Origin: an uncultured bacterium
GTDB lineage: Bacteria > Patescibacteriota > Microgenomatia > Levybacterales > UBA12049
Length of the DNA stretch: 64,000 nucleotides
Direction of reading: 5' to 3'
Assembly (NCBI GenBank): GCA_963826535.1
Contig: CAWGXL010000011.1
Coordinates: 512,809-576,808 of the forward strand
In this document: piece after piece, positions 8,350-52,541 of the stretch
Layout: the number at the start of each line of letters is the position of its first letter
Position numbering within the stretch: position 1 is the first letter of the stretch
Translations under genes and position numbers: made by a program
The notes under the pieces: generated by a model
What the model was told of the DNA's origin: nothing
Databases searched by the model: none
What the model saw: only the letters and a program-made list of their open reading frames with translations

Positions 8350-8370
8350 AAATTCAAAGTTAAAAGTTGA

Positions 8371-9780: not shown

Positions 9781-9900
9781 ATGAATTGTCCGGGGTCGTG
9801 GGGCGTTGTCCGCCCCTGTCTCAGCCGATAAATCGGCTTCGCAGGCGGGCTCCTCCCTTCGGTCGTCCGCCCCCTACGCTAGCCACCCCTCTCAAGAGTA
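9781..9900. repeat. GC-rich MITE-like element (family shared with 17085-17140, 19621-19830, 24784-24900) inserted between atpD and atpC
   Basis: GC-rich island in an AT-rich genome. Shares CCGGGGTC...CCCCTGTCTC...GCAGGCGGGCTCCTCCCTTCGGTCGTCCGCCCC...CCACCCCT with other loci. Internal hairpin AGCCGAT-AA-ATCGGCT. Confidence 0.6.
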
Positions 9901-10189: not shown

Positions 10190-10262
10190 TAAAAGTTCAA
10201 AATTAAAAGTTATATATAATAAAAGACAAACTTTGAACTTTGTTCTTTAAACTTTTAACTTA
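10190..10262. terminator. bidirectional hairpin terminator between convergent atpC and giant gene
   Basis: Inverted repeat TTAAGTTAAAAGTT...AACTTTTAACTTAA flanked by T/A runs, built from AAAGTTC-type heptamers. Confidence 0.5.
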
Positions 10263-14717: not shown

Positions 14718-16230
14718 AGGCGTATCCTATATATTAGCCTTGAAATTATACAGATTATACCGTGAACTTTATACCTAATAATAGCTTATAACCTTTAGAG
14801 AAGAGTTGTCAATAGGCATAAATGATATATATTTATATATTTATATATATTATTATATATAGAAAATAAGACGAACTATTAGCAAATGCTTTGTGAAAAG
14901 TTTTTTTTAACCGTGAAAATCATTAATTTAGCCTGGTAGTACTAAATATGGGTATGGATAGGGATCTAAAGTGGAGTTAACATGGCTAGTTTTGTAAATA
15001 TACATAAATTAAAAAGTAATTTTTACTTATTTATATTCTTAAATCTTAAATTTGCTTGTCTTAACAGTCTAAATTTATTAATATTGAAAAGTATATTAGT
15101 TATTAACATTTATACGGATGATAAAGTAGGGCAAAAATTTAATCAGGTAAAGTAAATGTCTATTTCAACCCGTTTTAGATCTATTTTTATAACTTTAATA
15201 TTATATAATATGGGCTTATTTTTAATTAGTTTAACTCTATGTTTTTAGATCTTATAGTAATAGTCAACTTTTGAGTATTAATTTCTTATATACTGTCCTT
15301 AACTCTAATTTACTATTTATCAGTAGCTATTGTTGAGTGCTAGGTTATTAATATTATTATTTGGACTATATTGTTAACTAATTATGCTAATTTCGTTTGT
15401 CAGTTTATAAGCATATCTCTAATAGGGCTATTCTTTTATAGAGGTATAGAATAGCTCTTAAAATTTTATCTGGAGGGTTATTAGTTTTACTTATTTAAAT
15501 ACATTTAATATTATAAGTTTTTAGTTCGTATTTATTTTTTAAGTATAATTATTGGTAATTTCAACTCAATTATTGGGTCGTATAATGAGTTTGCCGGGGT
15601 CTTTTAATATATTATATTGTTTTTTTAGAGTTCAATTAGCTTTCAGCTAATTAAAAGTCTATCTATTTCTTAATTAAGTCAATTTTTGCTTACTAATATT
15701 GGTATTTATGTTAATAGTATCAATTACCTATATATATTTAGGTAATTAAATTTATCTTATAATTTTGCTTTATATCATTTTTTCATCAATTTAACTCATC
15801 TTAAGTAGCAGCTTTTCTTCTAGCCAGGGCCTCTGAAAGGCCATATAGGACTTTAATTCTCTTAAATAGGGGCATTGTGTACTGGAAATCTATTATCTAT
15901 TCCCTTATTATATTTTCTTTTTTACATATATTAAATCAATTCTAGGTAAACTAAACTATCCCTTATCATCAGGCTATTTTTAAGTCTTGTAGTTTTCATT
16001 TTAATCTTATAATAGTACTTCTATTTTTGTTTATAATAGTTATAATATTTGGCTTTTTTATGCCTATTTTAATATTATAGGTTAAATGGTATATATATTT
16101 ATGCTTTAAGATATTATTTACCTGTGAATTACCTTTTAGATATGGTTAGTCGCAATGAAAAGTATTAACCTACTTTATTCTAATTGCAGAGCTGTTCACA
16201 TTATTGTTAACATATTATTAGGATGAAAAT
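14718..16230. other. 1.5 kb extremely AT-rich ORF-free region
   Basis: No ORF >60 aa on either strand. Poly-TA tracts (14820-14870). Lies next to transposase remnants. Confidence 0.5.
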
Positions 16231-16232
16231 GA

Positions 16233-17040
16233 CGAAATCTGCCCTTCGTCTGTCAAGTGGGGATAAGATTATTATAATTAAGAAAGTATTAGGAGGTAAA
16301 TCTATATCCTCGTCCTGTAGAAATGCAGGAATTTCACGAACGATATTCTATAAGTGGTTAAAGCAATAGTCTAGAGGCACTCCTAATAGTATTATTAAGG
16401 ATCTTTCAGCAAGAAATCCAAAAGGAAATCAAAACTGGAGGAAAATCGAAAGCAAACTATCACGCAGGATAGTAAAATTAGCATTAAGTCATCCTGATTA
16501 TAGTATAAGAACTATTGCTACAAGTTCAGAATTAAGTATTGGTTTTGTGTGGGAATTACTTAATAATAAATCACTTGCAACTAAATCTGATAGAAATAAA
16601 AGCCTTGATGTTTATGGGAAAATATATATAGGCCGATTATAGGTAGCGATAAGGAATTGATGATTAGGAGGTTTGAAAATGGTGATTCAATTAATACAAT
16701 TTGTAGGGATTTTCGAATATCCAGAACTATATTTTATAATTGGTTAAAAAAGTATAAAAAATCTAATAGTAATATTGAAGTTTTAAAGAACAGGAGGCCA
16801 AGTGGCAATGAACATTGGAGGTTTATATCAGGTTTAAATGAAATAGTAGCAGATTTTATAACAATTCATCCGGAATGTTCATTAAATCAAATACATTAAC
16901 TAATTCTTGAGAAGAAAGGAGTTAATGTCAGTAGATCCGGTTTATAATATATTTTAAAACGTTTGGACCATAATACTGCTGATAAAAGGCTTAAATATGC
17001 AGCTGCTCACAAGCTTGTAAGCAGACAATTGTACTCAGTG
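16233..17040 (+). pseudogene. two tandem degraded copies of the N-terminal HTH region of an IS630/Tc1-like transposase (no DDE domain)
   Basis: Copy 1: MTKSALRLSSGDKIIIIKKVLGGKSISSSCRNAGISRTIFYKWLKQ* then RNPKGNQNWRKI...HPDYSIRTIA in another frame. Copy 2 (16657..16899): ...ICRDFRISRTIFYNWLKKYK...RRPSGNEHW..., then LILEKKGVNVSRSGLYNILKRL after a stop. Frames are broken by stops. Confidence 0.5.
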
Positions 17041-17726: not shown

Positions 17727-18884
17727 TTATCTATCTGTTTTTAGGCGGTATCTGACGCGGAGAAAAATAGTTATGGCTATAGCCAATGCCAGGGTAATAA
17801 CGATAATCAGTTGTAATGGTAGTGCTAAGAATACAATTGATTGGTTAAAAATAGGTCCTTTTTCGGAAAGAGCAAGGTTGAGAGTCGCTGTATAGGGACC
17901 AAGCAGAAAATTTTCATTCCAGAAAATTTTCTGCACTGAGAACTTACCTGCCTCGCCGGCAGGCAGGGAACTTTGAACTGAGGAAAAGGATGAATTTGAA
18001 CGTGTTTGATTGTTTCCCAGGTTGACTAGTTTCGTTGAAGCCTCGTCGGTGAGAGAGCGAGTGCTGGAGGAGAGAATGTTGGCAGGCGAGATATCCAGCC
18101 TGGCAATGGTTTGGCCAAAAATATTTTTGATAAAAATTATTCCTTTGGGGGTAATAAAGTGTGGTCCGGTGTTTTTAATTCTTACCGTGAATTCAACCGG
18201 GCCGGATTGGAGAAAGTTGGGAGCAGAAAATTCTTCGATTGCAGCTTGAGGCTGGTTTTTGGATCTAATAGATAGCAATACATTGGCTGCAATTCCCGCA
18301 TTTATGGTTGAGAAATTTTGATCTTGTGTATTAGCTTCAGGGGCAGGACCTACTTCTTCAGGCTGAGAGGGGGTTTGCGGGACTGAACCCGCCTCCGCCA
18401 AAGGCTTCGGCGATGCAAGAAATATTAGAGAAAAATAATAATCAGAAATTTTTTCGTTTTTGGGGATAGTGAAATGGAGTTCAAGATTTTTCTTCTGTTT
18501 TGGACCTAGCTCAAAATGGGTTGTGACGATTCCATTGTCTGTGAGGCTAATCTTACTAAAGATATTTTTGTAGGAATCGGGTGTTTGGTCGTTGAAATAT
18601 TCAATTTGTCCGGATTCGCCATATGGACGGAAAGGTTTGAAGAGTACTTGGATATTAATAGGTTCAGTTCCTTGGTTTTGTAGAGTTAAAGGTGTTTTAG
18701 ATTCTGCTGGTGGATTTAGATGGATTTGAAGTAGTGAGGGGGAAACGGAGAGAGAGATTCCGTCTGCGTTTACAGTACTAAAGTTGAAAGTTAAAAGAGC
18801 AAAGTTCAAAGTTGCAGTGCAAAGTGCAAAGTTTAAACAAAAATAAATAATTTTTAATTTTGAATTGTAGTTTTGAGTTTTCAT
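17727..18884 (-). CDS. cell-surface protein with N-terminal signal peptide and C-terminal TM anchor
   Basis: N-terminal hydrophobic leader encoded by AAAGTTC-type heptamer repeats. C-terminal LALPLQLIIVITLALAIAITIFLRVRYR anchor. Confidence 0.55.
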   Translation of the reverse strand: MKTQNYNSKLKIIYFCLNFALCTATLNFALLTFNFSTVNADGISLSVSPSLLQIHLNPPAESKTPLTLQNQGTEPINIQVLFKPFRPYGESGQIEYFNDQTPDSYKNIFSKISLTDNGIVTTHFELGPKQKKNLELHFTIPKNEKISDYYFSLIFLASPKPLAEAGSVPQTPSQPEEVGPAPEANTQDQNFSTINAGIAANVLLSIRSKNQPQAAIEEFSAPNFLQSGPVEFTVRIKNTGPHFITPKGIIFIKNIFGQTIARLDISPANILSSSTRSLTDEASTKLVNLGNNQTRSNSSFSSVQSSLPAGEAGKFSVQKIFWNENFLLGPYTATLNLALSEKGPIFNQSIVFLALPLQLIIVITLALAIAITIFLRVRYRLKTDR

Positions 18885-19620: not shown

Positions 19621-19830
19621 TTGAAATCTCAAATTTATATGGCCGGGGTCCTTTCTCCCTCCCACCCCTGTCTCGCTTCGCTCGCAGGCGGGCTCCTTCC
19701 TTCGGTCGTCCGCCCCCAGTCTCCCACAAGTGGACTATCTTCTTAGAAGGGTCGCCACGTCCTCCTTCTCCGCCAGCTGGCGGATCGCTGCGGGCGCTCG
19801 ATGGGTTCCCCAACGCCCGCCACCCCTGAC
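19621..19830. repeat. composite GC-rich element upstream of leuS (MITE-like module + CCCACAAG-GGAC hairpin module + CTGCGGGCGCTCGATGGG module)
   Basis: Shares long blocks with 9781-9900 and 24784-24900. Internal variant of the TCCCCACAAGGGGACTACCTTCTTCGAAGGGTCG element at 19722-19765. Confidence 0.55.
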
Positions 19831-19936
19831 GCCTTTTTTTAAGAGTAATATTATACCTAACTTGTTTAAGAAGTGTAAATGTAACGGATTTACAACGGGC
19901 TTTTTTCTTTTTAAGCTGTATGCTATACTGCTGAAG

Positions 19937-22691
19937 ATGAGGAAAAATGAGGCTAAATTCAGTGAAAAAAGTTTGGAGAAATATGACCCCTCAAGCATTG
20001 AACCGTATTGGCAGGCTAAGTGGGAGAGCGCTGGAGCTTATCAGACTGACCTTGAGAGTGCTAAAAACCCTTTTTATAACTTGATGATGTTTCCGTATCC
20101 GTCGGCTGAAGGCTTGCACATGGGCAGCGTGTTTACTTTCAGTGGTGTGGATATATATGGAAGGTTTAAGAGGATGCAGGGATATGATGTGTTTGAACCA
20201 ATTGGGCTGGATGGGTTTGGGATTCACTCGGAGAACCATGCGATTAAAACCGGAATGCATCCTATAGAACATGCTAAGAGAACTGAGGAGAATTTTTACA
20301 GGCAGCTTAGATTGATTGGGAATGGGTTTGATTGGAAGCATAAAGTTGAGACTTATGATCCTCATTATTATAAGTGGACGCAGTGGTTATTTGTTGAACT
20401 TTTTAAAGCTGGATTGTCCTATAGAAAAAAGTCTCCGGTTAATTTTTGTCCTTCATGTAAGACGGTATTGGCTGATGAACAGGTTATTGACGGAAAATGT
20501 GAAAGGTGCGGATCAATTGTTGAGAAAAGAGAGCTTGAGCAGTGGTTTTTTAGAATTACTAAATATGCAGAGAGGCTGCTTAATAATATTGTTAAATTGA
20601 ATTGGACTGAGAAGGTGAAGATCGCACAGAAGAATTGGATAGGAAGATCTGAAGGCGTTCGGATTAAGTTTGCTCTAAAAGTTTCCGGTCAAAAAGACGG
20701 GAAGCATTTTGTTGATGTTTTCACCACACGTCCCGATACGCTTTTTGGGGCAACGTTTCTTGTTATTTCTCCTGAGCTGGCAAAGTCCTGGTTGTCTGTT
20801 GGCTGGAAAGCTCGATCTGAATTAGTTGATTATATAGAGACGGCAATGGGATCTGACCCACGATTAAGAGAAGCAGCCGATCGGGAAAAAACCGGTGTTT
20901 CTACAGGTGTTATAGCAGTTAATCCAGTTACTAATGAGGAAATTCCGGTATGGGTGGCGGATTATGTGCTTGGTGGGTATGGAACAGGGGCGATTATGGC
21001 AGTACCGGCACATGATCAGCGGGATTTTGAATTTGCTCAGAAGTATAAATTAAAGATTAGTACTGTCATCCTGAACAAAAGTGAAGGATCTAAAGATTCT
21101 TCGGCTTTGCCTCAGAATGACAAAAAAGTAGCGTACACGGGCTCTGGGGTTTTGGTAAATTCAGGGGAGTGGGATGGGTTAGAAGTGCCGAAAGATATAA
21201 AAAAAGTTTTAGATTGGTTGGAAAATAAAGGGTTTGGGGAGAGAGAGGTGAATTACCATTTGCGGGATTGGCTGATTTCTCGCCAACGTTACTGGGGGCC
21301 GCCGATTCCGATGATTTATTGTGAGGCTTGTGCGAAGAAGGGGAAGAGTTGGTTTAGTCTGAAACCGAAGACCTCACCCCAACCCTCTTCTAAAAGGGGA
21401 GGGAGAAATGTGAGTGAAAATAATGATTGGGAAAGTGCGGGGTGGTATCCGGTTGAGGAAATGGAATTGCCGGTGAAATTGCCGTATATTGAGGATTTTA
21501 AGCCTATGGGTACGGGAAAATCGCCACTTGCCAATTACCCGAAGTTTTATGAGACGGTGTGTCCGGGGTGCGGGGGCAAGGCTAGGAGAGAGACAGATGT
21601 ATCCGATACTTTTTTGGATAGTGCTTGGTACTTTTTCCGTTACACGTCGACCGAGTTTGATGACCGTGCTTTCGATAAGCAGAGAGCAAAAAAATGGCTG
21701 CCTGTGAATATGTATATTGGCGGAGCAGAGCATTCGGTATTGCATTTGTTGTACGCACGCTTCATATGGAAAGTTCTTCTTGATCTTGGACATATTGGGT
21801 TTTCCGCCCAAGGCGGACCAGCCTCTGGGCTGGGAGGAACCGTTCGCTAGGTTTTATGCGCATGGGCTTTTGATCAAAGATGGTGCAAAGATGAGCAAAA
21901 GCCGGGGAAATGTGATAAATCCTGATGATTATATCCGAAAATTCGGCGCGGATGCGCTTCGTGCGTATTTGCATTTTTTGGGACCTTTTAATGAGGATGG
22001 AGATTTCAGGGATACCGGTATTGAGGGAATGCATAGGTTTTTGAAAAGGGTCTGGACTCTTTTCAAAAAAGTTCAAAGTTCAAAGTTCCCCACAAGGGGA
22101 CTACCTTCTTCGAAGGGTCGCAAAGTTCAAAGTTCAGAAGAAAATCTGAGGATGATGCATAGGACGATTGCGGGGGTGACTGAGGAACTTAAGAATTTGC
22201 GATATAATACGGCAATTGCGAAGCTTATGAGTTGGTATAACTTTTTGGCCAAGCAGGAATCTGTGAGTAGAGAAGAGATGGAAATATATTTGAAGCTTTT
22301 GGCACCGTTCGCGCCACACATAACTGAGGAATTGTGGCAGGCACTAAACTACCCAGAACGAGGCGCAGAACTACGCGGAAAAGATTGGTCAATTCATGCA
22401 AGTAAATGGCCGAAATTTGATCCTAAGTATATTAAAGACGTTGTTGTGAAGATTCCGGTACAGGTGAATGGGAAGTTGCGGGAGACAATAGAAGTTCAAA
22501 GTTCCCTCCTCGGTGGGCAGGCAAAGTTAAAAGTTCCCCACAAGGGGACTACCTTCTTCGAAGGGTCGCAAAGTGAAATAGAAAGGATGGCGAAAGAATG
22601 TGATAACGTCAGAAAATATCTTGAGGGGAAAAAGATTTTGAGAGTGATATATGTGCCTGGGAAGGTGATTAACTTTGTGGTAGGAAGTTAG
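19937..22691 (+). CDS. leuS: leucyl-tRNA synthetase, apparent +1 frameshift near 21795-21825 and two in-frame mini-element insertions
   Basis: N-terminus ...IEPYWQAKWE...NLMMFPYPSAEGLHMGS; KMSKS motif (GAKMSKSRGNV) in the second frame. Frame A ends at 21850 (...KVLLDLGHIGFS...). Frame B (21717..22691) continues ...EEPFARFYAHGLLIKDG. Confidence 0.8.
22068..22136. repeat. mini-element (CAAAGTT)n-TCCCCACAAGGGGACTACCTTCTTCGAAGGGTCG-(CAAAGTT)n inserted in-frame in leuS
   Basis: Two hairpins (CCCC-ACAA-GGGG; CCTTC-TTC-GAAGG). Translated as SSKFPTRGLPSSKGRKVQSSE. Nearly identical copy at 52122-52190. Confidence 0.7.
22491..22575. repeat. second copy of the same mini-element in leuS, inserted in a different reading phase
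   Basis: ...CAAAGTTAAAAGTTCCCCACAAGGGGACTACCTTCTTCGAAGGGTCGCAAAGTG translated as KLKVPHKGTTFFEGSQSE. Confidence 0.7.
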
Positions 22692-23486: not shown

Positions 23487-24782
23487 ATGTTAAGTTTTAG
23501 GATTTTATTGATTATTGTTTTTCTTCTTATTTTTCTAGGTTTAAGATTTTGGAACTTTTATAAAGACTTACCGGAATATTATCATGGGCAGAAGATTTCT
23601 TTGATCGCTGAGATCGCAGACGAGCCGGAAATCGTTTTTGGGAGACAGAATTTTAATATAAGAGATGGATATGGGACCCGTATCAGAGTTGTCAGCGCTT
23701 CTTCGCCGCTTTTAAGTTACGGTGATAGAGTTTCTATTGATGGGTTTTTCACGAAGAAACTTTATAAAGGTAAAAATTATCTAGTCTTATATTTCCCAAA
23801 GATCCAAACTCTAGGATTAGATGATAATATTTTAACTAAATGGGCTATTTGGACTCGTAATAAAGCGCAAAATGACTATGAAAGGCATCTTCCGCCTGTG
23901 TCCTCCAGCTTGCTTTTAGGTATACTTTTCGGAGGGAAACATGGAATGCCGGATGTGTTTTCGGAACATCTGCGAGTTGCGGGAGTAATGCATGTAATTG
24001 CAGCGTCGGGGATGAATGTAACTTTTGTTGCTGGAGCTTTAATAGGTGTGTTGGGTTCAATATTCAACAGACAGTTTGCTATAGTTATAGCTGGGTTTGG
24101 TATTGTTTTTTATATGTTTTTAGCAGGATTTGAAGCATCGATTGTGCGTGCCGGGATCATGGCTCTTCTGGCTTTTGGGGCGAGTCTTTTGGGAAAGCAG
24201 TATTTGGGAATGTATTCACTGTTAGTTGCTTTTTATTTGATGTTAATTTACAGTCCTGGTTTGTTGTTTGATGTTGGTTTTCAGTTGTCTTTTTTGTCAA
24301 CGCTTGGGATAGTGATTTTCAGACCCCACTTCGTCCCGCTGAGCGGGACTTCGCGGGGCAGGCCCCACGCCACTGAAAATGCAAAGGGGAGTTCGCTTAG
24401 TAATATCCCCGGTATGACAATTTTGTCTGAGGATATTGGTACGACTATAGCAGCTCAGATTGCTGCGTTGCCGGTTTTGATGTCTGTTTTTGGGTCGGTT
24501 GGGATTTTGTCTATATTGGTAAATGCCCTGGTGCTTTGGACAATTCCAATTCTTATGGCTTTCGGGGCTTTGTCTTTGGTTTTAGGTTTAGTTGTTGAAC
24601 CTATTGGACTGGTGTTTTTGTATTTGTGCCTGCCTTTCCTTTTATTTTTTGAGCAGGTTGTTTCATTTTTTGGGGGTTTCGGCTGGGTTTGGAAAGTGGA
24701 GGAGTTTCCTTGGCAGTTGAGTATTGGGTATTATTTAGTGCTTTTGGCGATAGTATTGTATTTACGAAAAAAGAGGCTATGA
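23487..24782 (+). CDS. comEC: ComEC/Rec2 membrane channel, N-terminal and competence domains only
   Basis: Polytopic membrane protein with VAGVMHVIAASGMNVTFVAG (ComEC competence-domain motif). Carries an in-frame GC-rich mini-element at 24322-24395. Confidence 0.7.
   Translation: MLSFRILLIIVFLLIFLGLRFWNFYKDLPEYYHGQKISLIAEIADEPEIVFGRQNFNIRDGYGTRIRVVSASSPLLSYGDRVSIDGFFTKKLYKGKNYLVLYFPKIQTLGLDDNILTKWAIWTRNKAQNDYERHLPPVSSSLLLGILFGGKHGMPDVFSEHLRVAGVMHVIAASGMNVTFVAGALIGVLGSIFNRQFAIVIAGFGIVFYMFLAGFEASIVRAGIMALLAFGASLLGKQYLGMYSLLVAFYLMLIYSPGLLFDVGFQLSFLSTLGIVIFRPHFVPLSGTSRGRPHATENAKGSSLSNIPGMTILSEDIGTTIAAQIAALPVLMSVFGSVGILSILVNALVLWTIPILMAFGALSLVLGLVVEPIGLVFLYLCLPFLLFFEQVVSFFGGFGWVWKVEEFPWQLSIGYYLVLLAIVLYLRKKRL
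24322..24395. repeat. GC-rich two-hairpin mini-element (GTCCCGC-TGA-GCGGGAC; GGGGC-AG-GCCCC) inserted in-frame in comEC
   Basis: Perfect 7-bp stem. Translated as RPHFVPLSGTSRGRPHATENAKG. Related copies at 32226-32265 (minus orientation) and 44068-44090. Confidence 0.65.
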
Positions 24783-24783: not shown

Positions 24784-24900
24784 GTAGTGTTTTTGTCCCA
24801 ATGGGGTCCTGTCTCGCCTTTTCCCAGTCCGACGTCCTCGCTCACTACGTTCACTGCGGGCGCTCGACTGGGAGCCCTAGGCTCGCCACCCCTAACTAAT
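24784..24900. repeat. GC-rich MITE-like element between the comEC membrane part and the MBL-domain gene
   Basis: Shares GGGGTCCTGTCTCGCC and CTGCGGGCGCTCGACTGGG...CGCCACCCCTAAC blocks with 19621-19830. Confidence 0.55.
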
Positions 24901-25842: not shown

Positions 25843-27384
25843 ATGATCAGAAAATCCCTCTTATTGTTTTTATCTATTAGTATATTTCTATTTTTCTTTA
25901 ATATTTTCTCTTTTAATAAAACTCAAGCGCAAACTTGTGCCCATACGCCTACAAGTACTAACAGTGTTACAAGCATAGTCGCATTCACTGTGGCCGGAGA
26001 TTATAAAGTATGGAGCAGGATATTGGCTCCTGATTCAGCAAGCAATTCATTTTATCTTCAAATTGATAATAATTGCGCTATTAATATAGGTGACCAAACA
26101 ACAATCCCTGCCAATAGTTTTACCTGGGTTGATTATCAGGATGGGGTAGTGACGAATTCAGTTAGTGTTAACCTTACGGCAGGAGATCACACAGTCAAGA
26201 TAACTGAACGTGAAGGAGGAGTGGGTATTGATAAATTGCTCTTTATCACGGATATGCAATGTGTTCCAACGGGGACAGGAGATAATTGTCCTTCCGTCAC
26301 TGATACGCCATCTCCAACACTTTCAAACATTCCGCCAACAATTCCACCTTCCAACATAATAACTATCGGAGAAACGAACATTTTGAGTAGGAACGACAGC
26401 GGCAATGGTAATCAGCTGTTCGCTACAAAAACGACCCTCTCACAGACGGCCACACTTCAGAGTCTCTCTTTCTATGTCACGACAGCGACCGGCAATCTCC
26501 GGCTCGGCATATTTGACGCGACCGGTCCCGGTGGAGCGCCGGGTGCCAGGAAAGCCGAAACGGCTAGTTTGACTCCCACGACGGGCTGGAACACGGCGGG
26601 CGTCACTCCAGTTTCCCTGCCGGCTGGGAACTACTGGCTGGCCTATCTGCCGAGCAATAACACTCTTGGCTACAGAGCGGAATCTACCGGAGGAGATTCC
26701 AAGCAGATGTCACATGCCTACGGCCCAATGCCCACCACTTACTCAACTGCTCCAGGCTCTACACACTGGCGTTGGTCTTTATACGCTACACTCAATACTT
26801 CAGCCTCCGAACCTACACCGACTAAAACTCCAGCTCCTACCTCGACACCTTTACCAACAGCAACTCCTTCGCCACTTCCAACCCCAACACCCACTTCAAC
26901 ACCTACGCCGATACCTCTGCCTACAGCAACACCAACTAAGACTCCTACGCCTACCCCAACAGGCAATGGTTTGCAAGCAGTCTATTACAACAATACAAAT
27001 TTCACCGGCATCTCCATAGTGCGCATTGATCCAAGCATTAATTTCAATTGGGGCACGGGCTCTCCTCATTCATCAATTGCTGGCGATACCTTTAGCACCA
27101 TTTGGACAGGTTTTGTAGTTCCCCGTAATAGCCAAACTTATACTTTTTATGCAAAAACAGACGATGGTGTGCGTCTATGGGTAAATGGTCAACAACTGAT
27201 AAATAGTTGGATCAATCAGAGCGCGACTGAGCGGAGCGGGTCAATAACTCTTATTGCAGGACGAAAATATACAATCAGGATGGAATATTATGAGAATAAT
27301 GGAAGCGCTCTTGCCCAGCTTCGCTGGAGCAGCTCGGCTCAGATCAAAGAGATTATTCCTCAGAGTAGATTATATAGTTTTTAA
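25843..27384 (+). CDS. secreted protein: signal peptide, N-terminal beta-sandwich domain, Pro/Thr-rich linker, C-terminal PA14 domain
   Basis: PT linker PTPTKTPAPTSTPLPTATPSPLPTPTPTSTPTP. C-terminal GLQAVYYNNTNFTG...WTGFVVP...YTFYAKTDDGVRLWVNGQQLI...RMEYYENNGSALAQLRWSS is a typical PA14 domain. Confidence 0.7.
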   Translation: MIRKSLLLFLSISIFLFFFNIFSFNKTQAQTCAHTPTSTNSVTSIVAFTVAGDYKVWSRILAPDSASNSFYLQIDNNCAINIGDQTTIPANSFTWVDYQDGVVTNSVSVNLTAGDHTVKITEREGGVGIDKLLFITDMQCVPTGTGDNCPSVTDTPSPTLSNIPPTIPPSNIITIGETNILSRNDSGNGNQLFATKTTLSQTATLQSLSFYVTTATGNLRLGIFDATGPGGAPGARKAETASLTPTTGWNTAGVTPVSLPAGNYWLAYLPSNNTLGYRAESTGGDSKQMSHAYGPMPTTYSTAPGSTHWRWSLYATLNTSASEPTPTKTPAPTSTPLPTATPSPLPTPTPTSTPTPIPLPTATPTKTPTPTPTGNGLQAVYYNNTNFTGISIVRIDPSINFNWGTGSPHSSIAGDTFSTIWTGFVVPRNSQTYTFYAKTDDGVRLWVNGQQLINSWINQSATERSGSITLIAGRKYTIRMEYYENNGSALAQLRWSSSAQIKEIIPQSRLYSF

Positions 27385-27390
27385 AACATT

Positions 27391-29001
27391 TTGAAAAAAT
27401 TCTTTATAGACTACATACATGCACTAATACCTCCATACAAGAGGGCTGATCTGCCATTGGTCACTTTAACAATAGTATTAACTGTAGCTATGTTGTTTGC
27501 AATAAATAACATAAGGTATGAAGATACCAAATCTCAAAGCTATGCACTAAGTACTTATACTATTAATGTTGAAGCGGAGAACGGGAATTTTGCAGGAAAT
27601 GTGAGTATGGTTAATGATTCGAATGCCTCCGGAGGGAGGTATGTTGTATTTGGTAGCGGGAATGTTGCGAGTGTTGCTGCCTTTCCCGGCGCAGAAGGAT
27701 TCGGGGCAATTTCGGTTGGCGGGCGTGGAGGTCGTGTGATCCAGGTGACGAACTTGGATGATTCCGGGCCTGGCAGCTTTCGCGATGCTGTTACGCAGAG
27801 CGGACCGCGTACGGTCGTTTTCAGGGTTGGGGGTACTATCACTTTGGCATCGGATATCAATATTATAGAACCATACCTTACAATTGCCGGACAAACCACT
27901 CCAGGGGGCGGCATCCAGTTCCGTGGCAAAGGGCTTAGGGTCCAGCCTCCGGCCCACGATATCACTATCCGTCACATACGGATCCGCCGCGGATGGATAA
28001 CTAACCCGGGCGTTAACGATGTAGGACTCTCGGTGGAGTCTGGATCTAATGCGGGCAATTCCTCATCCTTGGCGGTCTACAACGTTATTGTTGACCATTC
28101 ATCTCTTGGATGGCAGCAAGACGACAACGCTGGCTGGGGGAAGATACGAAATATTACCTTCCAGTGGAATTTTATCAATGAGGGAAACAATCCGGATTCA
28201 CCATTCAATAATGGTATAAGCGGGAAAGGCCTCTTATTAGGGGCGCCTCCGGGTCAGGGCAACGATATGGGGACTATCTCGATCCACCACAACTTTCTCG
28301 CAAGCAACCATCAGCGTAATCCATCGATTGGTGGCCATGGACCGACCGAGGTCGTGAACAACGTGATCTATAATTGGGGAGCCTTCGGCACTCAGATTCA
28401 GAACCGCGGAACGGATGGGACCAAGATGAATATAATCGGTAATTATTACAAGGCGGGACCTAATACCGGTTTGTCTCGTTATGAGGTGCTCATAAGTAGC
28501 GCTAGCGCGGGGGTTCTGGATCAACTTCCAGAGATGATATATATAAGTGACAACCTTAGCCCGCATCGGACAAGCAGCGCCCAACCTGAGTGGGCTCTAG
28601 TTGGCTATTGCGGGGCAGGAGGCCCAACTTACTGTACGATACCTGCTTCTACTTCGTTCCAGCGGAGTACTCCCTGGCCATCATCCGATTATCCCATCAG
28701 CGTTTCTAGCGTTCAGGAAAACATTACGGATGTCCTGAATAATGCCGGTGCCACTTTGCCTGTTCGAGACGAGGTAGATGCTCGGCTGGTAGCTGAATAC
28801 AATTCTGGTACAGGAACCATCGGAGGTGATAACAATTGGCCGATTCTTCAAGCCGGCACTCCGCCGGCGGACAGCGATAGTGATGGCATGTCAGATACTT
28901 GGGAAACAGCTAATGGACTCAATCCGAATGATGCAAGTGATGGACCTAAGATTGTTAGTAATGGTTACTCTAATCTGGAAAATTATATTAACAGTTTGTA
29001 A
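27391..29001 (+). CDS. membrane-anchored pectate-lyase-like (right-handed beta-helix) protein with C-terminal DxDxDG / NGYSNLENYINSL tail
   Basis: AEGFGAISVGGRGGRVIQVTNLDDSGPGSFRDAV...RTVVFRVGGTITL...TIAGQTTPGGGI resembles the PL1-type pectate lyase N-terminal signature. C-terminal DSDSDGMSDTWETANGLNPNDASDGP. Confidence 0.55.
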   Translation: MKKFFIDYIHALIPPYKRADLPLVTLTIVLTVAMLFAINNIRYEDTKSQSYALSTYTINVEAENGNFAGNVSMVNDSNASGGRYVVFGSGNVASVAAFPGAEGFGAISVGGRGGRVIQVTNLDDSGPGSFRDAVTQSGPRTVVFRVGGTITLASDINIIEPYLTIAGQTTPGGGIQFRGKGLRVQPPAHDITIRHIRIRRGWITNPGVNDVGLSVESGSNAGNSSSLAVYNVIVDHSSLGWQQDDNAGWGKIRNITFQWNFINEGNNPDSPFNNGISGKGLLLGAPPGQGNDMGTISIHHNFLASNHQRNPSIGGHGPTEVVNNVIYNWGAFGTQIQNRGTDGTKMNIIGNYYKAGPNTGLSRYEVLISSASAGVLDQLPEMIYISDNLSPHRTSSAQPEWALVGYCGAGGPTYCTIPASTSFQRSTPWPSSDYPISVSSVQENITDVLNNAGATLPVRDEVDARLVAEYNSGTGTIGGDNNWPILQAGTPPADSDSDGMSDTWETANGLNPNDASDGPKIVSNGYSNLENYINSL

Positions 29002-29072
29002 TGACGCACACATCCCGCCCCTAGTTGACAACACTCCGCTTTTTCTAATAGGCTAAAGAAGTAGATTCTAAA

Positions 29073-31378: not shown

Positions 31379-32722
31379 TTAGTTGGCTAGATGGTTGATG
31401 GGTTTTTCGCTTGGTCCCGATTTAACCCCGATTATATCGGGGGGACTCGGAGTTGGGTTTGGTGTAGATGCGAGATTTTTTGTCGTGGAATTGATTGGGA
31501 TGGTGAAGGTGATTGTGGTTCCTTTGTCGGGGTCGGAAACGAGGGCGATGGTACCGCCGTGGGCTTCAACTATTCCTTTGGAGATATATAATCCAAGTCC
31601 GGTTCCTACAGTTGCATTTGGGCTACGGATTTGTGTGAATTTTGAAAAGAGTAGATGTTGTTTTTCTTTGGGAATTCCGATTCCCGTATCGCTTACACTA
31701 ATAGAAATTTTTTCATTGTCAATCCAAGCTCGTATGGTAATAGTACCTCCGCTTGAAGTGAATTTAAGACTGTTAGTGAGTAGATTGTTTATTACCTTGC
31801 GTATCTGATAGCTTTCGAAGCTGGCTTCGGGCACAAGCGGGTCAATTTGGCATACTAAATGGATAGATTTATTTTCAGCAAGATGTTTGTATGCTTCTAC
31901 AGCTTCTGCAATGACTTTTTTAACATCTCCGTTTGTTTTCTGTATTGTAAAAAGTCCGTTGTCTAGCTTAGCAGCATCTAGAATTGTAGATACTTCATCG
32001 AGCATTTTGCCTGTTTGAACGCTGATGATCCCTATCAGGCGCTTTTTTTCATCATCTGTAAGATTTGTTCCTCCTGTTAACATTTCGGAACTGGCTTTGA
32101 TGGAGGTGAGGGGACTGCGCAATTCGTGGACGATGATGCTAGTGAAATCTTCTTTCATTTTTGATAGTGATTTTTCCAAAGTAACATCATGGATTAAAAA
32201 TGAGGCTCCAGTAACTTTGACTTCCTGTTCGTTCCGCTCAGCGGGACTTCGCGGGGCGAGTCCCAAGACACTGGAAACATCGTTGGGAGCCAGGATGGGA
32301 TTTATTGTTACATTAAAGGATTTGTTATCATGGAGTATATTTTTTTCTTCAATTTTTTGGTTTAATTTTATGGCTTTTTCAATTCTTTCACCGAAATTAT
32401 AGGTATTGGGTAGGCTACTTAATACATCTATTATTGACGGGTTGTCTTTTTGCAGTCCCAGGAAATCTTTGGCGGTTTTGTTTATCAAAGTTAGACGGCT
32501 GTTAACATCTACCAAAAAGAGACCGTCATCAAGGTTCCCAACTAATGATGTCAAATCGTGTTTTTCTCTAACCAGTGCTTCCTGCAACTTTTTTTCATTT
32601 TCGTTGAGTGCCTTTTTAAGTTTTTCTTCTTTAATAGAGTAAAAAATGGCAAGTATGCCAAAAAATAATGTTGCAGAAATAGCAATGATTATGGGCAGGT
32701 CCATGATAAGTTCAAAGTTCAA
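31379..32722 (-). CDS. sensor histidine kinase (TM, PAS-like, HisKA, HATPase_c)
   Basis: H-box IIVHELRSPLTSI. ATP-lid GTGLGLYISKGIVEAHGG. Contains an in-frame GC-rich mini-element at 32226-32265. Confidence 0.8.
   Translation of the reverse strand: MNFELIMDLPIIIAISATLFFGILAIFYSIKEEKLKKALNENEKKLQEALVREKHDLTSLVGNLDDGLFLVDVNSRLTLINKTAKDFLGLQKDNPSIIDVLSSLPNTYNFGERIEKAIKLNQKIEEKNILHDNKSFNVTINPILAPNDVSSVLGLAPRSPAERNEQEVKVTGASFLIHDVTLEKSLSKMKEDFTSIIVHELRSPLTSIKASSEMLTGGTNLTDDEKKRLIGIISVQTGKMLDEVSTILDAAKLDNGLFTIQKTNGDVKKVIAEAVEAYKHLAENKSIHLVCQIDPLVPEASFESYQIRKVINNLLTNSLKFTSSGGTITIRAWIDNEKISISVSDTGIGIPKEKQHLLFSKFTQIRSPNATVGTGLGLYISKGIVEAHGGTIALVSDPDKGTTITFTIPINSTTKNLASTPNPTPSPPDIIGVKSGPSEKPINHLAN
32226..32265. 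repeat. GC-rich hairpin mini-element (CCGCTCAGCGGGACTTCGCGGGGC family) in-frame in the histidine kinase gene
   Basis: Reverse orientation of the comEC copy. Translated as LGLAPRSPAERN. Confidence 0.6.
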
Positions 32723-32765
32723 AGTTAAAAGTTCTAAGTGAAAAGTTATAAAGTATTTTTAGCTT

Positions 32766-34490: not shown

Positions 34491-36352
34491 CGGTTAAAGA
34501 ACAATTGGTAAAAGATTTACATTCGATAGTTAAAAAACTGGGGGGGGATTTTACTCCGGTGGTGGAGTTTCCGGCGGATTTGGGGCATGGAGATTTTACT
34601 ACTAACGCTGCTCTAGTTCTGGGGAAGACGTTAAAGCGTGATCCGATGGAAGTGGCGGAGATAATAAGTTCAAAGTTCAAAGTTCAAAGTTCAAAGTTCA
34701 AAATTATTGAAAAAATAGAGGTGGTGAGGCCGGGGTTTGTTAATTTTTGGTTTAGCGGGGGATATCTTAATACAGAGCTTGAAAGATTGAAGAAAGTTGA
34801 TTTTTTCTCAAATAATAAAAATCAAAAGGGGAGAGTGGTTGTTGAATACTCCAGTCCAAATATAGCAAAACCTTTCACAATAGGTCATTTACGATCAACA
34901 ATTATTGGGGATGCAATTGCTAATTTATTACAAGCTACAGGTTGGGAGGTTTATAGGGATAATCATTTGGGGGATTGGGGAACTCAGTTTGGGAAGCAAA
35001 TTTATGCAATTAAAGAATGGGGGGATGAAAAGAAGCTTGATGAATCTGAACATCCGGTAAAGATGCTTGTGGAATTATATGTGAGATTTCATGCAGAGAC
35101 GGCCGCGTCAAACGCGGTTAGAAAGGAAAATGAAGTTGATGCAATGTCAAACGTTGCCAATATTGAGGATGAGGCTCGAAAATGGTTTAAGCGGCTTGAA
35201 GAGGGGGACATAGAGGCGAAAAGACTATGGCAGAAATGTGTTGATTGGTCATGGAGGGAGTTTGATGCAATTTATAAACAGCTCGGGGTTTCATTTACAG
35301 AAAATGAGGGGCGTGGATATGGCGAATCTTTTTTTGAAGACAAGATGGAATCCGTTGTTGAGGAACTTGAACAAAAGAAACTTCTTAAGGAATCTGAAGG
35401 GGCAAAGCTTGTTTTTTTTCCTGGCGATAAATATTCGCCACTTATGATTATTAAAAAAGATGGTGCTACCCTTTATGCAACTCGGGATTTGGCGACTGAT
35501 AAGTTTCGTTTAGATAAGTATGGTAAAGATATTTTGGTTATCAATGAAGCCGGAGCTGAGCAGTCATTATATTTTCAACAGCTTTTTGCAGTTGAGGAGA
35601 TGCTTGGTTGGTTCAAAAAAACAAAGAGGGTTCATATAAAACATGGCTTATATCGTTTTAAAGATGAAAAGATGTCTACCAGAAAGGGGAGTGTGATTTG
35701 GTTAAAAGATGTTCTTTATGCAGCAAACCACCAGGCTTTGCAATTGATGAGTAATAAATTTGAATTTGACATAGACGACAAAGTAAACGTGAAAAAGAAA
35801 GATAACAAGCATGTGATTTTAGAGAGAAAAGAGGCTGTAGATAATGCTTCGGTGGTAGGTATTGGTGCTCTGAAATGGAACGATCTAAAGCGGGATTCCA
35901 AGCAGGATATTACATTTGATTGGAGAGAGGCATTGAATATGGAAGGGAACTCCGGGCCGTATTTACAATATACATACGCAAGAACACAAAGTGTTTTGCG
36001 TAAATCCGAAATTCGAATATCGAAATACGAAACAAATTCAAAATTCAAAATTCAAAATTCAAAATTAGAACAAGAAGAGTTACTGCTATTGCGTTCGCTT
36101 GTGAGATTCGAGGAGGTTGTGCTCGAGGCAGCGGAGAAGTATGCGCCGAATATTCTTTGTAATTATTTGTTTGTTTTAGCACAGGCGTTTAATTTGTTTT
36201 ATCAGAAGTTGCCGATATTGACCCCAATCAAATCGGGGATGAAAGAAATAGGGGAGATTAGGGATATGCGTTTAGCTTTGACTGAGGGGACAGGAAAAGT
36301 TATAAAATTGGGGCTTGAGCTATTGGGGATTGAGGCACCAACACGCATGTAG
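34475..36352 (+). CDS. argS: arginyl-tRNA synthetase with two in-frame AT-rich repeat insertions
   Basis: PNIAKPFTIGHLRSTIIGD (HIGH region). Insertions (CAAAGTT)4 at 34671-34705 (SSKFKVQSSKFKII) and a CGAAAT/CAAAATT repeat at 36018-36068 (RISKYETNSKFKIQNSKLE). Confidence 0.85.
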   Translation: MERIMTVKEQLVKDLHSIVKKLGGDFTPVVEFPADLGHGDFTTNAALVLGKTLKRDPMEVAEIISSKFKVQSSKFKIIEKIEVVRPGFVNFWFSGGYLNTELERLKKVDFFSNNKNQKGRVVVEYSSPNIAKPFTIGHLRSTIIGDAIANLLQATGWEVYRDNHLGDWGTQFGKQIYAIKEWGDEKKLDESEHPVKMLVELYVRFHAETAASNAVRKENEVDAMSNVANIEDEARKWFKRLEEGDIEAKRLWQKCVDWSWREFDAIYKQLGVSFTENEGRGYGESFFEDKMESVVEELEQKKLLKESEGAKLVFFPGDKYSPLMIIKKDGATLYATRDLATDKFRLDKYGKDILVINEAGAEQSLYFQQLFAVEEMLGWFKKTKRVHIKHGLYRFKDEKMSTRKGSVIWLKDVLYAANHQALQLMSNKFEFDIDDKVNVKKKDNKHVILERKEAVDNASVVGIGALKWNDLKRDSKQDITFDWREALNMEGNSGPYLQYTYARTQSVLRKSEIRISKYETNSKFKIQNSKLEQEELLLLRSLVRFEEVVLEAAEKYAPNILCNYLFVLAQAFNLFYQKLPILTPIKSGMKEIGEIRDMRLALTEGTGKVIKLGLELLGIEAPTRM

Positions 36353-50319: not shown

Positions 50320-51354
50320 ATGCTTAATTTTAAACTGCCTACTACGAAGCGAATAGGAATAGATTTAGGAACGGCTAACACTTTGGTTTATGTAGTTGGG
50401 CAGGGGATTGTGCTTAATGAGCCGACGGTAGTTGCGGTTACTGCTGAAGAAAATCGTGTTGTTGCAGTTGGGCGAGATGCCAAAGAAATGCTTGGCAGGA
50501 CTCCCGGCAATGTTACGGCACTCAGGCCACTGCGTAATGGTGTGATCGCTGATTATACTATTACAGAGGCAATGCTTTCATATTTCATTGATAAGGTTTG
50601 CGGGCGGACTCGCTTTTTTAAGCCCGAAGTGATGGTTTGTATTCCTTCCGGTATTACCCAGGTTGAGCGCAGAGCTGTTCTTGATGCGACGATGTCGGCA
50701 GGGGCAAAAATTGCTTATCTTATTGATGAGCCATTGGCTGCGGCGATCGGAGCCAAGATACCAATTGCTCAGGCGGCAGGGCATATGATTGTGAATATAG
50801 GCGGAGGATCAACAGAATCGGCGGTAATTTCACTTGGCGGAGTTGTTGTTCACAGTTCGGTCAGAGTGGCAGGTAATAAGATAGATGAGGCAATTGCTAA
50901 TTTTGTGAAGAGGAAGCATAATTTGCTGATCGGAGAGACCACTTCAGAGACTATAAAGATTGAAATCGGCAATGCGACTACAACAAGCGTGACGGCAGCA
51001 AAATTGCGGACTATGGAGGTGCGTGGACGAGATACTATAAACGGTTTGCCGCGAACTCTTGTTTTGGATGAGACGACAGTGAATGAAGCAATTAAACCTG
51101 TGCTTATGGAAATTGTTAAGGGGGTTAAAGAAGTACTAGAGCAATGTCCGCCAGAGCTCGCAAGCGATATTATCGACAAGGGAATCGTAATGTCCGGAGG
51201 GACGTCACTACTTGTAAATTTTGATAAACTGATGACGGAAATGACAGGTGTGCCGTGTCATGTGGCGGAGGACTCACTTTTATGTGTGGCCCGAGGAACC
51301 GGAGTCGCGATGGAGAATATTGAGCTTTATAAGAGAACTATAAATAGGAAGTAA
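50320..51354 (+). CDS. mreB: rod-shape determining actin homologue MreB
   Basis: KRIGIDLGTANTLVYVVGQGIVLNEPTVVAV and the rest collinear with MreB. The ORF track alternative start 50272 is upstream. Confidence 0.85.
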   Translation: MLNFKLPTTKRIGIDLGTANTLVYVVGQGIVLNEPTVVAVTAEENRVVAVGRDAKEMLGRTPGNVTALRPLRNGVIADYTITEAMLSYFIDKVCGRTRFFKPEVMVCIPSGITQVERRAVLDATMSAGAKIAYLIDEPLAAAIGAKIPIAQAAGHMIVNIGGGSTESAVISLGGVVVHSSVRVAGNKIDEAIANFVKRKHNLLIGETTSETIKIEIGNATTTSVTAAKLRTMEVRGRDTINGLPRTLVLDETTVNEAIKPVLMEIVKGVKEVLEQCPPELASDIIDKGIVMSGGTSLLVNFDKLMTEMTGVPCHVAEDSLLCVARGTGVAMENIELYKRTINRK

Positions 51355-51388
51355 ATTTAGAATTTACAATTTATAATTTAGAATCAAT

Positions 51389-51440
51389 TTTCCCCACAAG
51401 GGGACTAGGTTTTTCCCCACAAGGGGACTGGCGCAAACCG
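51389..51440 (+). terminator. tandem TTCCCCACAAGGGGAC hairpins with T-run, probable mreB terminator derived from the mini-element family
   Basis: TCCCC-ACAA-GGGGA stem-loop followed by CTAGGTTTTT; second copy immediately after. Confidence 0.5.
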
Positions 51441-51701
51441 TCGCAATGAATAAATTTTTATATAGCCCTGTAAGTTGTAAATTTTTGCAATTATTATATG
51501 GTTGGAAATTGTCTGTCATAAATTTTTCATATAATCTCTGTGTCTTATAATATTTTTTTGTACAAATATGATTTTTTTAGTTTTTTTGAAAGCACGAGGC
51601 ATGAGAATTAGGGCTGAGAATTGTTTAAGTTTTATATTCTAAATATGTGGTTTAGAAAATTTTAGTTCTTTTTTAAAAATCTTATAGTACATCTGTGAAA
51701 T

Positions 51702-52493
51702 ATGTTGAGGAAAAGTTACATCCTTGGTGTTGGTATAACTAACGAAATCGAAGATAAAATCTTGGAGTATTTGTTATTGGGCCTAAAAAGTGCAAGGGAA
51801 AAGTATTATATTGTTACTCCTAATCCAGAGATACTGGTTCATTCATTTGGCAATCCGCATTATAAAAAGATTCTAAATGAGGCTAAAATAGCATTACCTG
51901 ATGGAATTGGGGTGTTTTTGGCAAGCGCATTGATGGGGAACATTATGAGAGAGAGGATTGCCGGGGTAGATTTCATGGACGAGATCTGTAAAAGATCAGT
52001 AAAAAGGCCCATAACAGTGGGCTTTTTGGGGGGTAGAGATGGGGTAGCAGAGAGAACAGCCGAGTGCTTAAAGGCGAAATATCCTTGGATAGAAGTGGGG
52101 TTTGTGGGAGAGGAATGGGCAAAAAGTTCAAAGTTCCCCACAAGGGGACTACCTTCTTCGAAGGGTCGCAAAGTTAAAAGTTCAAAGTTAGAGCTTGATA
52201 TTCTCTTTGTGGCGTTTGGGCATCCTAAGCAGGAGGAGTGGATTTATAAAAATCTTGAACGCCTGCCGGTGAGGGTGGCTATGGGAGTGGGAGGGGCATT
52301 TGATTACATTAGCAGCAAAGTAGTCCGGGCACCTTTTATGGTTCGCGCGATGGGGTTTGAGTGGTTGTTTCGGTTGATTGTGGAGCCGTGGCGCTGGCGG
52401 AGACAGTTGGTGTTACCAAAATTTGTGTGGCTGGTTTTGAAAGAAAGATTTGGAAAAAATATAGAACAACGCAAAATTTCATCCCGCCTCTAG
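51702..52493 (+). CDS. WecB/TagA/CpsF-family (GT26) glycosyltransferase with in-frame mini-element insertion
   Basis: YIVTPNPEILV...ALPDGIGVFLASALMG. Insertion at 52122-52190 encodes SSKFPTRGLPSSKGRKVKSSK. Confidence 0.7.
   Translation: MLRKSYILGVGITNEIEDKILEYLLLGLKSAREKYYIVTPNPEILVHSFGNPHYKKILNEAKIALPDGIGVFLASALMGNIMRERIAGVDFMDEICKRSVKRPITVGFLGGRDGVAERTAECLKAKYPWIEVGFVGEEWAKSSKFPTRGLPSSKGRKVKSSKLELDILFVAFGHPKQEEWIYKNLERLPVRVAMGVGGAFDYISSKVVRAPFMVRAMGFEWLFRLIVEPWRWRRQLVLPKFVWLVLKERFGKNIEQRKISSRL
52122..52190. repeat. copy of the (CAAAGTT)n-CCCCACAAGGGG-CCTTCTTCGAAGG mini-element inside the tagA-like gene
   Basis: Nucleotide sequence nearly identical to 22068-22136. Confidence 0.7.
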
Positions 52494-52541
52494 TTGACAA
52501 CTCTTTACTATATCTAATAGGCTAAAGTAGTAGATTATAAA

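Follow-up and report, generated by a model that had tools for sequence, protein, structure and literature searches.

Several families of short palindromic repeats share features with the DNA described here. REP sequences (repetitive extragenic palindromes) and the BIMEs (bacterial interspersed mosaic elements) built from them are short GC-rich imperfect hairpins of 20-40 nt, joined in fixed-order mosaics; they lack target-site duplications (TSDs) and terminal inverted repeats (TIRs), are non-autonomous, and are extragenic by definition. IS200/IS605 transposons and their hairpin-only derivatives (PATEs, palindrome-associated transposable elements) also have neither TSDs nor TIRs, are recognized by way of hairpins, insert by a short specific sequence, and take an orientation that is tied to the replication strand. 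Bypass elements such as the T4 gene 60 gap and the "byps" of Magnusiomyces mitochondria are GC-rich hairpin inserts in the coding sequence of an AT-richer genome. Rickettsia palindromic elements (RPEs) are palindromic repeats of ~100-150 bp that lie in frame within unrelated conserved protein genes and are translated, apparently in a way compatible with the protein fold (PMC10969869). The GC clusters, double-hairpin elements and RHE of mitochondria are GC-rich single, double or triple hairpins of 17-84 bp in AT-rich compact genomes, arranged in tandem or as mosaics, that occupy intergenic regions and also variable regions of protein and rRNA genes (PMC2800124). Genomes of the candidate phyla radiation (CPR), for example the related Ch65 genome, have been described as being without mobile elements (PMC7143001). 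Here we analyzed a stretch of 64,000 nt from an uncultured bacterium of the Levybacterales (GCA_963826535.1, contig CAWGXL010000011.1), hereafter the window, in which a GC-rich 33-nt module, CCCCACAAGGGGACTACCTTCTTCGAAGGGTCG, is present in three identical copies, two within the leucyl-tRNA synthetase (LeuRS) gene leuS and one within a WecG/TagA-family glycosyltransferase gene (tagA).

The host genes, the three copies, and a second module that lies beside one of them are located as follows:

19937..22691, + strand: leuS (leucyl-tRNA synthetase), host gene; frame A 19937-21850 (TAG stop), frame B ~21801 to 22691
51702..52493, + strand: WecG/TagA-family glycosyltransferase gene (PF03808), host of copy 3
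22088..22120, + strand: module copy 1, CCCCACAAGGGGACTACCTTCTTCGAAGGGTCG, 33 nt, peptide (F)PTRGLPSSKGR
22536..22568, + strand: module copy 2, identical 33 nt in another phase, peptide VPHKGTTFFEGS; then CAAAGTG at 22569-22575
52136..52168, + strand: module copy 3, identical 33 nt; coincides exactly with the one gap when aligned to L004, the closest relative
22504..22521, + strand: second-family 18-nt GC module (CCC...GGCAGG), CCCTCCTCGGTGGGCAGG, at leuS site 2, peptide LLGGQA

A preliminary description of this DNA held that one element occurs twice in leuS in different phases and again in tagA, and this was borne out: the 29-nt core of the module, CCCCACAAGGGGACTACCTTCTTCGAAGG, was exact at 22088, 22536 and 52136, always on the + strand, with 0 occurrences expected from shuffled sequences. 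The stretch identical across the copies measures 33-34 nt, and with flanks the three share 62 nt at 87-98% identity (repeat family D7). Each copy consists of two short GC-rich hairpins, CCCC-ACAA-GGGG and CCTTC-TTC-GAAGG, and is bordered on both sides by heptamers of the CAAAGTT type. Both leuS copies are read within the C-terminal open reading frame (ORF), copy 1 as KKVQSSKFPTRGLPSSKGRKVQSSE and copy 2, in a different phase, as KLKVPHKGTTFFEGSQSE; the tagA copy is read as SSKFPTRGLPSSKGRKVKSSK in the phase of leuS copy 1, so that two of the three phases are in use, and the peptides were as quoted before. None of the sense frames of the module contains a stop codon, and its 33 nt are divisible by three.

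Insertion was most directly visible in tagA. The closest TagA homolog (P0122, locus L004) has 83% amino acid identity to that of the window. At the DNA level, the two genes share 87% identity, and their alignment contains one gap, exactly 33 nt long, which falls between heptamers 2 and 3 of an array that is uninterrupted in L004 (5 units, ACAAGTT CAAAATT / TAAAGTT AAAAGCT CAAAGTC) and filled in the window (AAAAGTT CAAAGTT, 33 nt, CAAAGTT AAAAGTT CAAAGTT). Comparison of empty and filled tagA showed no TSD beyond a 1-nt ambiguity, so the heptamers do not represent the duplicated target that had been entertained for them. For leuS, the nearest relatives of the window LeuRS are 63% identical and include those in Levybacteria and Patescibacteria metagenome-assembled genomes (MAGs), and among closer leuS relatives sought for empty sites there were none above about 61% identity. 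The insertion at leuS site 2 is absent in all 17 aligned LeuRS relatives, and in the two syntenic relatives compared throughout, L002 (GCA_041643235.1) and L003 (GCA_041643395.1), both with an intact leuS, the DNA at this position consists of uninterrupted arrays (GAAAGTT x4-5 and CAAAGAT x4). At leuS site 1, the same relatives carry (CAAAGAT)n and (CAAAAGT)n, each broken by a different GC module (CCCTTCGGCAAGGCTCAGGGCAGG and CCCACCAATTCGGCGGGCAGG); the CCC...GGCAGG family is also found at this site in L002 and L003, as well as inverted at 17947-17967 of the window. These alignments, in line with the lineage-specific insertion that had been proposed, show that the module is an insertion peculiar to the lineage and translated in frame within conserved proteins, with L004 tagA as its empty site.

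The places where it was inserted are variable or disordered loops. In the AlphaFold2 model of TagA (mean predicted local distance difference test score, pLDDT, 81.6), residues ~140-164, which comprise array and module, form a coil with pLDDT of about 47-52 between strands 131-136 and 165-171. Against solved LeuRS structures (3ziu, 1h3n), the inserts align to gaps or a variable linker, with leuS site 2 facing a 19-residue gap in PDB 3ziu; the AlphaFold2 model of LeuRS was too poor (mean pLDDT 57.6) for use beyond coil assignment. Since the arrays lie in loops, the module length is a multiple of three, and no stop occurs in the sense frames, the ribosome would read straight through, and the protein would gain only a longer disordered loop. 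The idea that the copies serve as DNA-uptake sequences was rejected because they are insertions and not motifs that arose by point mutation.

Because the module lies in heptamer arrays at all three sites, we compared these arrays between genomes. Those around the copies, and one that holds no module, are:

22067..22087, + strand: heptamer array left of copy 1, AAAAGTT CAAAGTT CAAAGTT; arrays at the orthologous site in relatives
22121..22134, + strand: heptamer array right of copy 1, CAAAGTT x2
22490..22503, + strand: left part of the array at leuS site 2, AGAAGTT CAAAGTT; 4-5 uninterrupted units in L002/L003
22522..22535, + strand: heptamers separating the two site-2 modules, CAAAGTT AAAAGTT
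52122..52135, + strand: heptamer array left of copy 3, AAAAGTT CAAAGTT
52169..52189, + strand: heptamer array right of copy 3, CAAAGTT AAAAGTT CAAAGTT
34664..34706, + strand: (CAAAGTT)5 array in argS without a GC module, unoccupied; second array at 36002-36070

The preliminary description had counted the heptamers as part of the element, and this did not hold: relatives have arrays at the orthologous positions either without the module or with other GC modules, and the heptamers are resident 7-nt arrays at orthologous loop positions, neither a part of the mobile unit nor a target duplication. Both argS arrays (34664, 36002) likewise have orthologous arrays in L002, with no module. Heptanucleotide arrays with many different units were far commoner than those of any other period in the window, at gene boundaries and in protein loops, as they were in L002 and L003; perfect lag-7 runs numbered 7 in the window, 9 in L002 and 6 in L003, vs 0-2 for other lags, and Tandem Repeats Finder reported ~30 period-7 arrays in the window, many of them at gene boundaries. 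By these counts, period-7 arrays are a property of the clade. Homogenization of heptamer units within each genome was ruled out, as L002 has CAAAGAT in leuS and CAAAGTT-type units in argS. The sense strand of CAAAGTT is open in every frame, and its antisense strand has TGA. At 18769-18884 on the - strand, heptamers read in antisense (AACTTTG) give rise to the hydrophobic stretch LNFALCTATLNFALLTFNF, which belongs to the signal-peptide region of a secreted protein and is partly missing in relatives. Further heptanucleotide arrays in the window are:

5196-5277, 7353-7382, 8344-8368, 10229-10261, 18780-18837, 32708-32747, 34666-34702
36002-36070, 46632-46658, 50187-50265, 51354-51384, 62377-62421

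The 33-nt module proved to lie at the center of a mosaic of ~190 nt built from hairpin modules, which occur singly, in pairs, or as composites of ~100-190 nt with a fixed order. The larger family, its wide distribution, its strand polarity, and the disruption of the leuS frame treated below were all missing from the preliminary description. Related elements in the window are:

19640..19834, + strand: GC-rich mosaic of ~195 nt upstream of leuS, with a central degenerate module copy (19722-19755); collinear with in-frame TagA inserts elsewhere
9788..9891, + strand: partial mosaic (5' modules) after atpD; 9809-9852 identical at 44/44 nt to the in-frame TagA insert of L005
24795..24896, + strand: mosaic without the central module in the comEC/MBL gene interval, forming one long imperfect hairpin (z = -2.6)
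24324..24377, + strand: D12-family GC hairpin element, in frame in ComEC; the window is ~23 residues longer here than L002/L003
32228..32277, + strand: second D12 copy, in frame in a - strand histidine-kinase gene; adds 13-16 aa vs relatives

The variant that had been placed upstream of leuS at 19722-19765 is thus a degenerate module at 19722-19755, and it lies within the composite and does not stand alone. The TagA homologs of L005 (P0132) and L006 (P0128) carry a ~190-nt in-frame GC-rich insert in the same loop that holds copy 3, and the modules in these inserts follow the same order as those of window 19640-19834 and, in part, those of 9788-9891 and 24795-24896. While the TagA proteins of the window and L005 are 58% identical, all 44 nt of window 9809-9852 match L005 4342-4385 within its insert; the element sequences are far better conserved than the host genes. 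A search of related MAGs by relaxed pattern scan (one genome per species) returned nine more module loci, in Levybacteria, Daviesbacteria and other Patescibacteria, and an exact 21-mer scan found one JGI contig with the module behind a (GCATAGA)9 array; exact 21-mer scans of a genome contig set and a viral contig set gave no match. One further in-frame copy is read in a 487-aa ORF of L009 (...PTRGLASSKRR...), and a 1464-aa protein of L003 contains an antisense copy, with AATTGTT repeats alongside, read as AASQKLVPLGD. In Daviesbacteria, the module sits within the loop of another palindrome, GATTCCCGC-TTT-module-GCGCGGGAATGACA, whose outer stem covaries between L010 and L013, and in L001 the module is partly duplicated in tandem. 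The mosaic family is spread through Microgenomates MAGs, namely Levybacteria and Daviesbacteria. No account of such arrays or elements in CPR bacteria was found in the literature searched.

These observations bear on whether a transposase is needed at all, as homology-driven copying between heptamer arrays (gene conversion, template switching or slipped-strand repair) could make the arrays both vehicle and target. In keeping with such a process, all three full copies lie in arrays of one heptamer, in the same phase and orientation to it; the 62 nt that they have in common include the flanks; there is no TSD; and the partial tandem duplication in L001 is typical of slippage. It would leave unexplained the near-identical modules in genomes whose arrays are built of different heptamers, and several members lie outside arrays altogether, in the hairpin loops of Daviesbacteria, in heptamer-free composites, and beside TTTT in leuS, and we hold this explanation to be the main alternative, though less likely than not.

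The two hairpins of the GC-rich core, already noted in the preliminary description, are preserved by compensatory changes. Across 14 distinct copies, 98.4% of pair cells were standard pairs, and helix 2 showed compensatory changes at three pairs, with GC, CG, AU or UG as its closing pair. The covariation score exceeded all 500 shuffles and all slid controls, with the caveat that the search pattern had fixed most positions, although it left the 3' base of the variable closing pair free. By itself, one copy does not fold with unusual stability vs shuffles (z = -1.3), and the composite of 102 nt forms an end-to-end fold (z = -2.6). Of Rfam 15 families, only two tRNAs reached the gathering score in the window, and the composites and the nested Daviesbacteria form matched nothing better than E = 0.24. 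Partial copies of the module occur behind mreB:

51354..51445, + strand: post-mreB spacer with an AATTTAG-type heptamer array, two hairpin-1 copies (51392-51405, 51415-51428) and a third small hairpin

These had been described as intergenic copies of the element that act as mreB terminators. Hairpin 1 (CCCCACAAGGGGAC) is indeed present twice, but the full module is not, and the terminator-like match is weak, with a 5-bp stem and a T-run after an intergenic hairpin-1 copy; the hairpin block is missing from the L004 spacer. The preservation of sequence and hairpins across phylum-level lineages, with covariation, could instead mean that the module is a selected functional cis-element, either a DNA signal (protein-binding, or architectural and strand-polar) or a hairpin in the mRNA that affects stability, termination or ribosome pausing, whose presence in genes is incidental or useful. 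The T-run behind mreB, the strong strand polarity described below, and the U-G pairs of helix 1, which become A-C mismatches on the opposite strand, all agree with such a role. Against such a role, the closest relative lacks the module in both tagA and the mreB spacer with no visible substitute; the fold is no stabler than its shuffles, no Rfam family matches, and the stem of the putative terminator has just 5 bp. On balance, we find a cis-regulatory or architectural function improbable.

With respect to strand, hairpin-1 copies in the window are on the + strand in 6/6 cases, and the copies of three other GC families are all on the + strand as well, including those within - strand genes. Over five families, the + strand, which is the G-rich one in the window, carries 14/15 GC-module copies, the sole inverted case being that at 17947-17967. 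In syntenic orientation, the L002 and L003 copies share the + strand, with the L003 module copy again within a - strand gene, and the element strand is the G-rich strand in 12/14 loci, a small number in which most genes are co-oriented. The window has ~40% GC with positive GC skew throughout its 64 kb, and one-directional GC skew has been reported for the UBA1400 / Collier- / Beckwithbacteria group (PMC7143001). The polarity fits a replication-strand-specific process, subject to the small numbers and the confounding with gene orientation.

Compared with the known systems, the module resembles the RPEs in where it lies and the REP/BIME and mitochondrial elements in how it is built. Like the RPEs, it is a palindromic repeat in a small genome of a host-dependent bacterium, fused translationally to unrelated protein genes, and it works like them in being an in-frame palindromic insert in essential genes. 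The parallel drawn in the preliminary description therefore stands for in-frame, stop-free insertion in conserved proteins and not for homology: the unit measured at the empty site is 33 nt vs about 100-150 bp (~150 bp in PMC10969869), the host belongs to the Patescibacteria (a Microgenomates-like CPR lineage) and not to Rickettsia, and no sequence relation is known. Whereas an RPE family has one conserved peptide and frame, the module is read as PTRGLPSSKGR, VPHKGTTFFEGS and, in antisense in L003, AASQKLVPLGD; it is also nested in 7-nt arrays and acts as a piece of a mosaic. With REPs and BIMEs it shares the short GC-rich imperfect hairpins joined into mosaics, but about half of the window copies lie within ORFs (leuS, tagA, comEC, the histidine kinase and others), the window has no GTAG-type motif and no gene for a RAYT (REP-associated tyrosine transposase, of the Y1 HUH type) among its ~45 ORFs, and the modules are near-identical over very divergent genomes. 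The mitochondrial elements are likewise tiny GC-rich hairpin repeats in mosaic order at intergenic and genic sites; they are organellar, and the available part of that account describes no targeting of heptamer arrays and reports no comparable strand polarity (PMC2800124).

Derivation from IS200/IS605 elements would agree with the hairpin ends and the lack of TSD and TIR. As to orientation, 14/15 window copies and 12/14 loci are on the G-rich strand, in small numbers confounded by gene orientation. No Y1 transposase was found among the ~45 window ORFs, and 33 nt is far below the known left-plus-right ends. Miniature inverted-repeat transposable elements differ in that the module shows no TSD beyond the 1-nt ambiguity and has two separate hairpins and not a TIR pair, although the composite at 24795-24896 does fold end to end.

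We therefore consider it probable that the module is a non-autonomous micro-repeat, of REP/BIME or double-hairpin type, belonging to a Microgenomates mosaic family, which has been copied into heptamer arrays and is tolerated in disordered loops. It would have been copied without target duplication into pre-existing ((C/A)AAAGTT)n arrays in variable surface loops of LeuRS and TagA. For the copying we infer, as the favored mechanism, a strand-specific process acting on single-stranded or hairpin DNA and driven in trans by a Y1/HUH or RAYT-like transposase, with unpaired DNA, such as slipped heptamer arrays or the loops of other hairpins, as its likely target and a cleavage or target motif that may lie after ...AAGTT. 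Several points weigh against this interpretation. A Pfam scan of the ~45 window ORFs detected no transposase or RAYT, the unit of 33 nt is below the size of any element with a demonstrated transposition mechanism, and only three full copies are visible. Conservation over very divergent genomes could instead reflect a function for the host, as an RNA motif or one bound by protein. With most genes on the + strand, strand bias and gene orientation are partly confounded, and the family member at 17947-17967 is inverted. That all three frames lack stops is statistically unremarkable in a GC-rich 33-mer (estimate about 0.37).

The leuS gene that hosts two of the copies is a genuine LeuRS gene, as had been stated, and is the only one seen in the window, but it is not one intact ORF. 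The first reading frame ends with a TAG at 21848, the remainder of the gene lies in the +1 frame, and the shift is located within 21800-21850; the gene appears in the protein database as two products of 637 aa and 259 aa (P0001, P0241), the 637-aa N-terminal fragment being 100% identical. A further GC-rich insertion lies at this position:

21803..21833, + strand: two-hairpin insertion of 31 nt, (T)CCGCCCAAGGCGGACCAGCCTCTGGGCTGG, between the conserved ...GHIGF and EEPFARF...; shifts the leuS frame

Its 31 extra bases consist of T + CCGCCCAAGGCGG-A-CCAGCCTCTGGGCTGG, forming two hairpins, the first of them similar to the CCGCC..GGCGG module in the composites; in all relatives, TTT GAA GAG is continuous here, and PDB 3ziu has a gap opposite the insert. 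With TTT for TTTT at the T4 run, it would become a 30-nt in-frame loop read as F-PPKADQPLGW-EEPF. We lean toward a consensus or assembly error, or a minority allele, as the source of the break; assemblies often err by one base where a T-run adjoins GC hairpins. Were the break real, LeuRS would be made either by +1 slippage on UUU_U (21800-21803), which precedes the hairpin, or in two subunits, like the split alpha-beta LeuRS of Aquifex; we consider this unlikely. tRNA-Phe can re-pair in the +1 frame on UUUU, after which the codons give PPKADQPLGW-EEPF, and C-terminal LeuRS fragments occur on long contigs in other CPR assemblies; moreover, 15 other syntenic genes have no indel-type breaks, from which the assembly looks clean. 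The LeuRS of Aquifex is naturally split, and the window break falls ~17 residues before that split position (PMC3643597). Weighing the other way, the A site has neither a slow nor a stop codon, neither a classic +1 stimulator nor a convincing one resembling a Shine-Dalgarno sequence was found at the break, and TTG candidates for the start of a C-terminal subunit have no Shine-Dalgarno sequence. Translational bypass was rejected after codon-by-codon inspection of 21788-21850: although the insert is a GC-rich hairpin breaking the frame as a byp would, it has no matched take-off and landing codons and no stop directly after take-off. The 33-nt copies, being in frame and free of stops, need no bypass.

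The break also raises the prospect that some or all of the coding copies are artefacts, arising from chimeric joins through repeated k-mers. These are repeats of high GC content in a genome with 40% GC, one of them adjoins the leuS break, and the copies are known from the assembled sequence. This we judge very improbable, as similar in-frame modules, including those in the same TagA loop, recur in independent NCBI, JGI and Logan assemblies, every copy but the 31-nt one keeps the frame, and the 15 other syntenic genes are unbroken. An extended form of the interpretation as micro-repeats, which we regard as improbable, is that the modules constitute a new class of single-strand-mobilized micro-element, with the smallest known unit (33 nt), integrating in unpaired DNA, oriented by replication and moving horizontally across Microgenomates, and that the leuS frame is truly broken; the cell, with no other LeuRS, would then need either +1 recoding at UUU_U or a split enzyme.

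The tagA comparison provides a clean case of filled and empty sites for selfish-type DNA inside essential genes of an ultra-small CPR bacterium, with 7-nt microsatellites at conserved positions in loops serving as landing pads. Many odd CPR peptides of low complexity (..SGQA.., ..PTRGL.., ..KFKVQSS..) are repeat DNA read through and not protein features, which matters for annotation, alignments for phylogeny, and structure prediction. Polarity and conservation across lineages point to a putative trans-acting machinery, and a frame-broken leuS serves either as a flag for assembly error at such elements or as a recoding candidate.

Other features of the window concern neighboring genes. The histidine-kinase gene with the in-frame GC element (31379-32722, - strand) lacks residues ~47-196 of its L002/L003 orthologs, a deletion of the sensor domain. 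In argS (34475-36352), the ends of ArgRS are very similar to L002/L003 while the ~380 residues between them have diverged much further (about 40-44% overall), which suggests from the alignment that the catalytic core may have been replaced or recombined. A synteny-conserved 1485-aa protein (10260-14717, - strand) with several heptamer arrays has two integrase N-terminal SAM-like (core-binding) domains and no recognizable catalytic domain, and may bind DNA. Two sequences resembling tRNA 3' halves and ending CCCCGACCA lie beside tRNA-Pro (45377-45449), at 45300-45376 on the - strand, and a 37-nt repeat pair is present at 44464 and 45140; the arrangement looks like att-type duplications of an integrated element. 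Because of these tRNA-like repeats, a tRNA-derived origin of the composite was considered, and it was ruled out as no tRNA model matched the composite. At 16226-17010, the lowest-GC stretch of the window (26%), we found a pseudogene homolog of a conserved L002/L003 helix-turn-helix/LysM gene with several in-frame TAG/TAA stops and a frame change. A ~5.5-kb block at 25843-31352, with 47-49% GC and absent from the syntenic relatives, encodes a PA14-domain protein and two large ORFs without a Pfam match, and its segments 29011-29310 and 29850-29988 match the beta-helix gene at 52480-53457 with 79-82% identity. Finally, 33582-34490 and 62434-63342 are paralogous 302-aa ORFs without a Pfam match, 28.9 kb apart, with 74-87% DNA identity.

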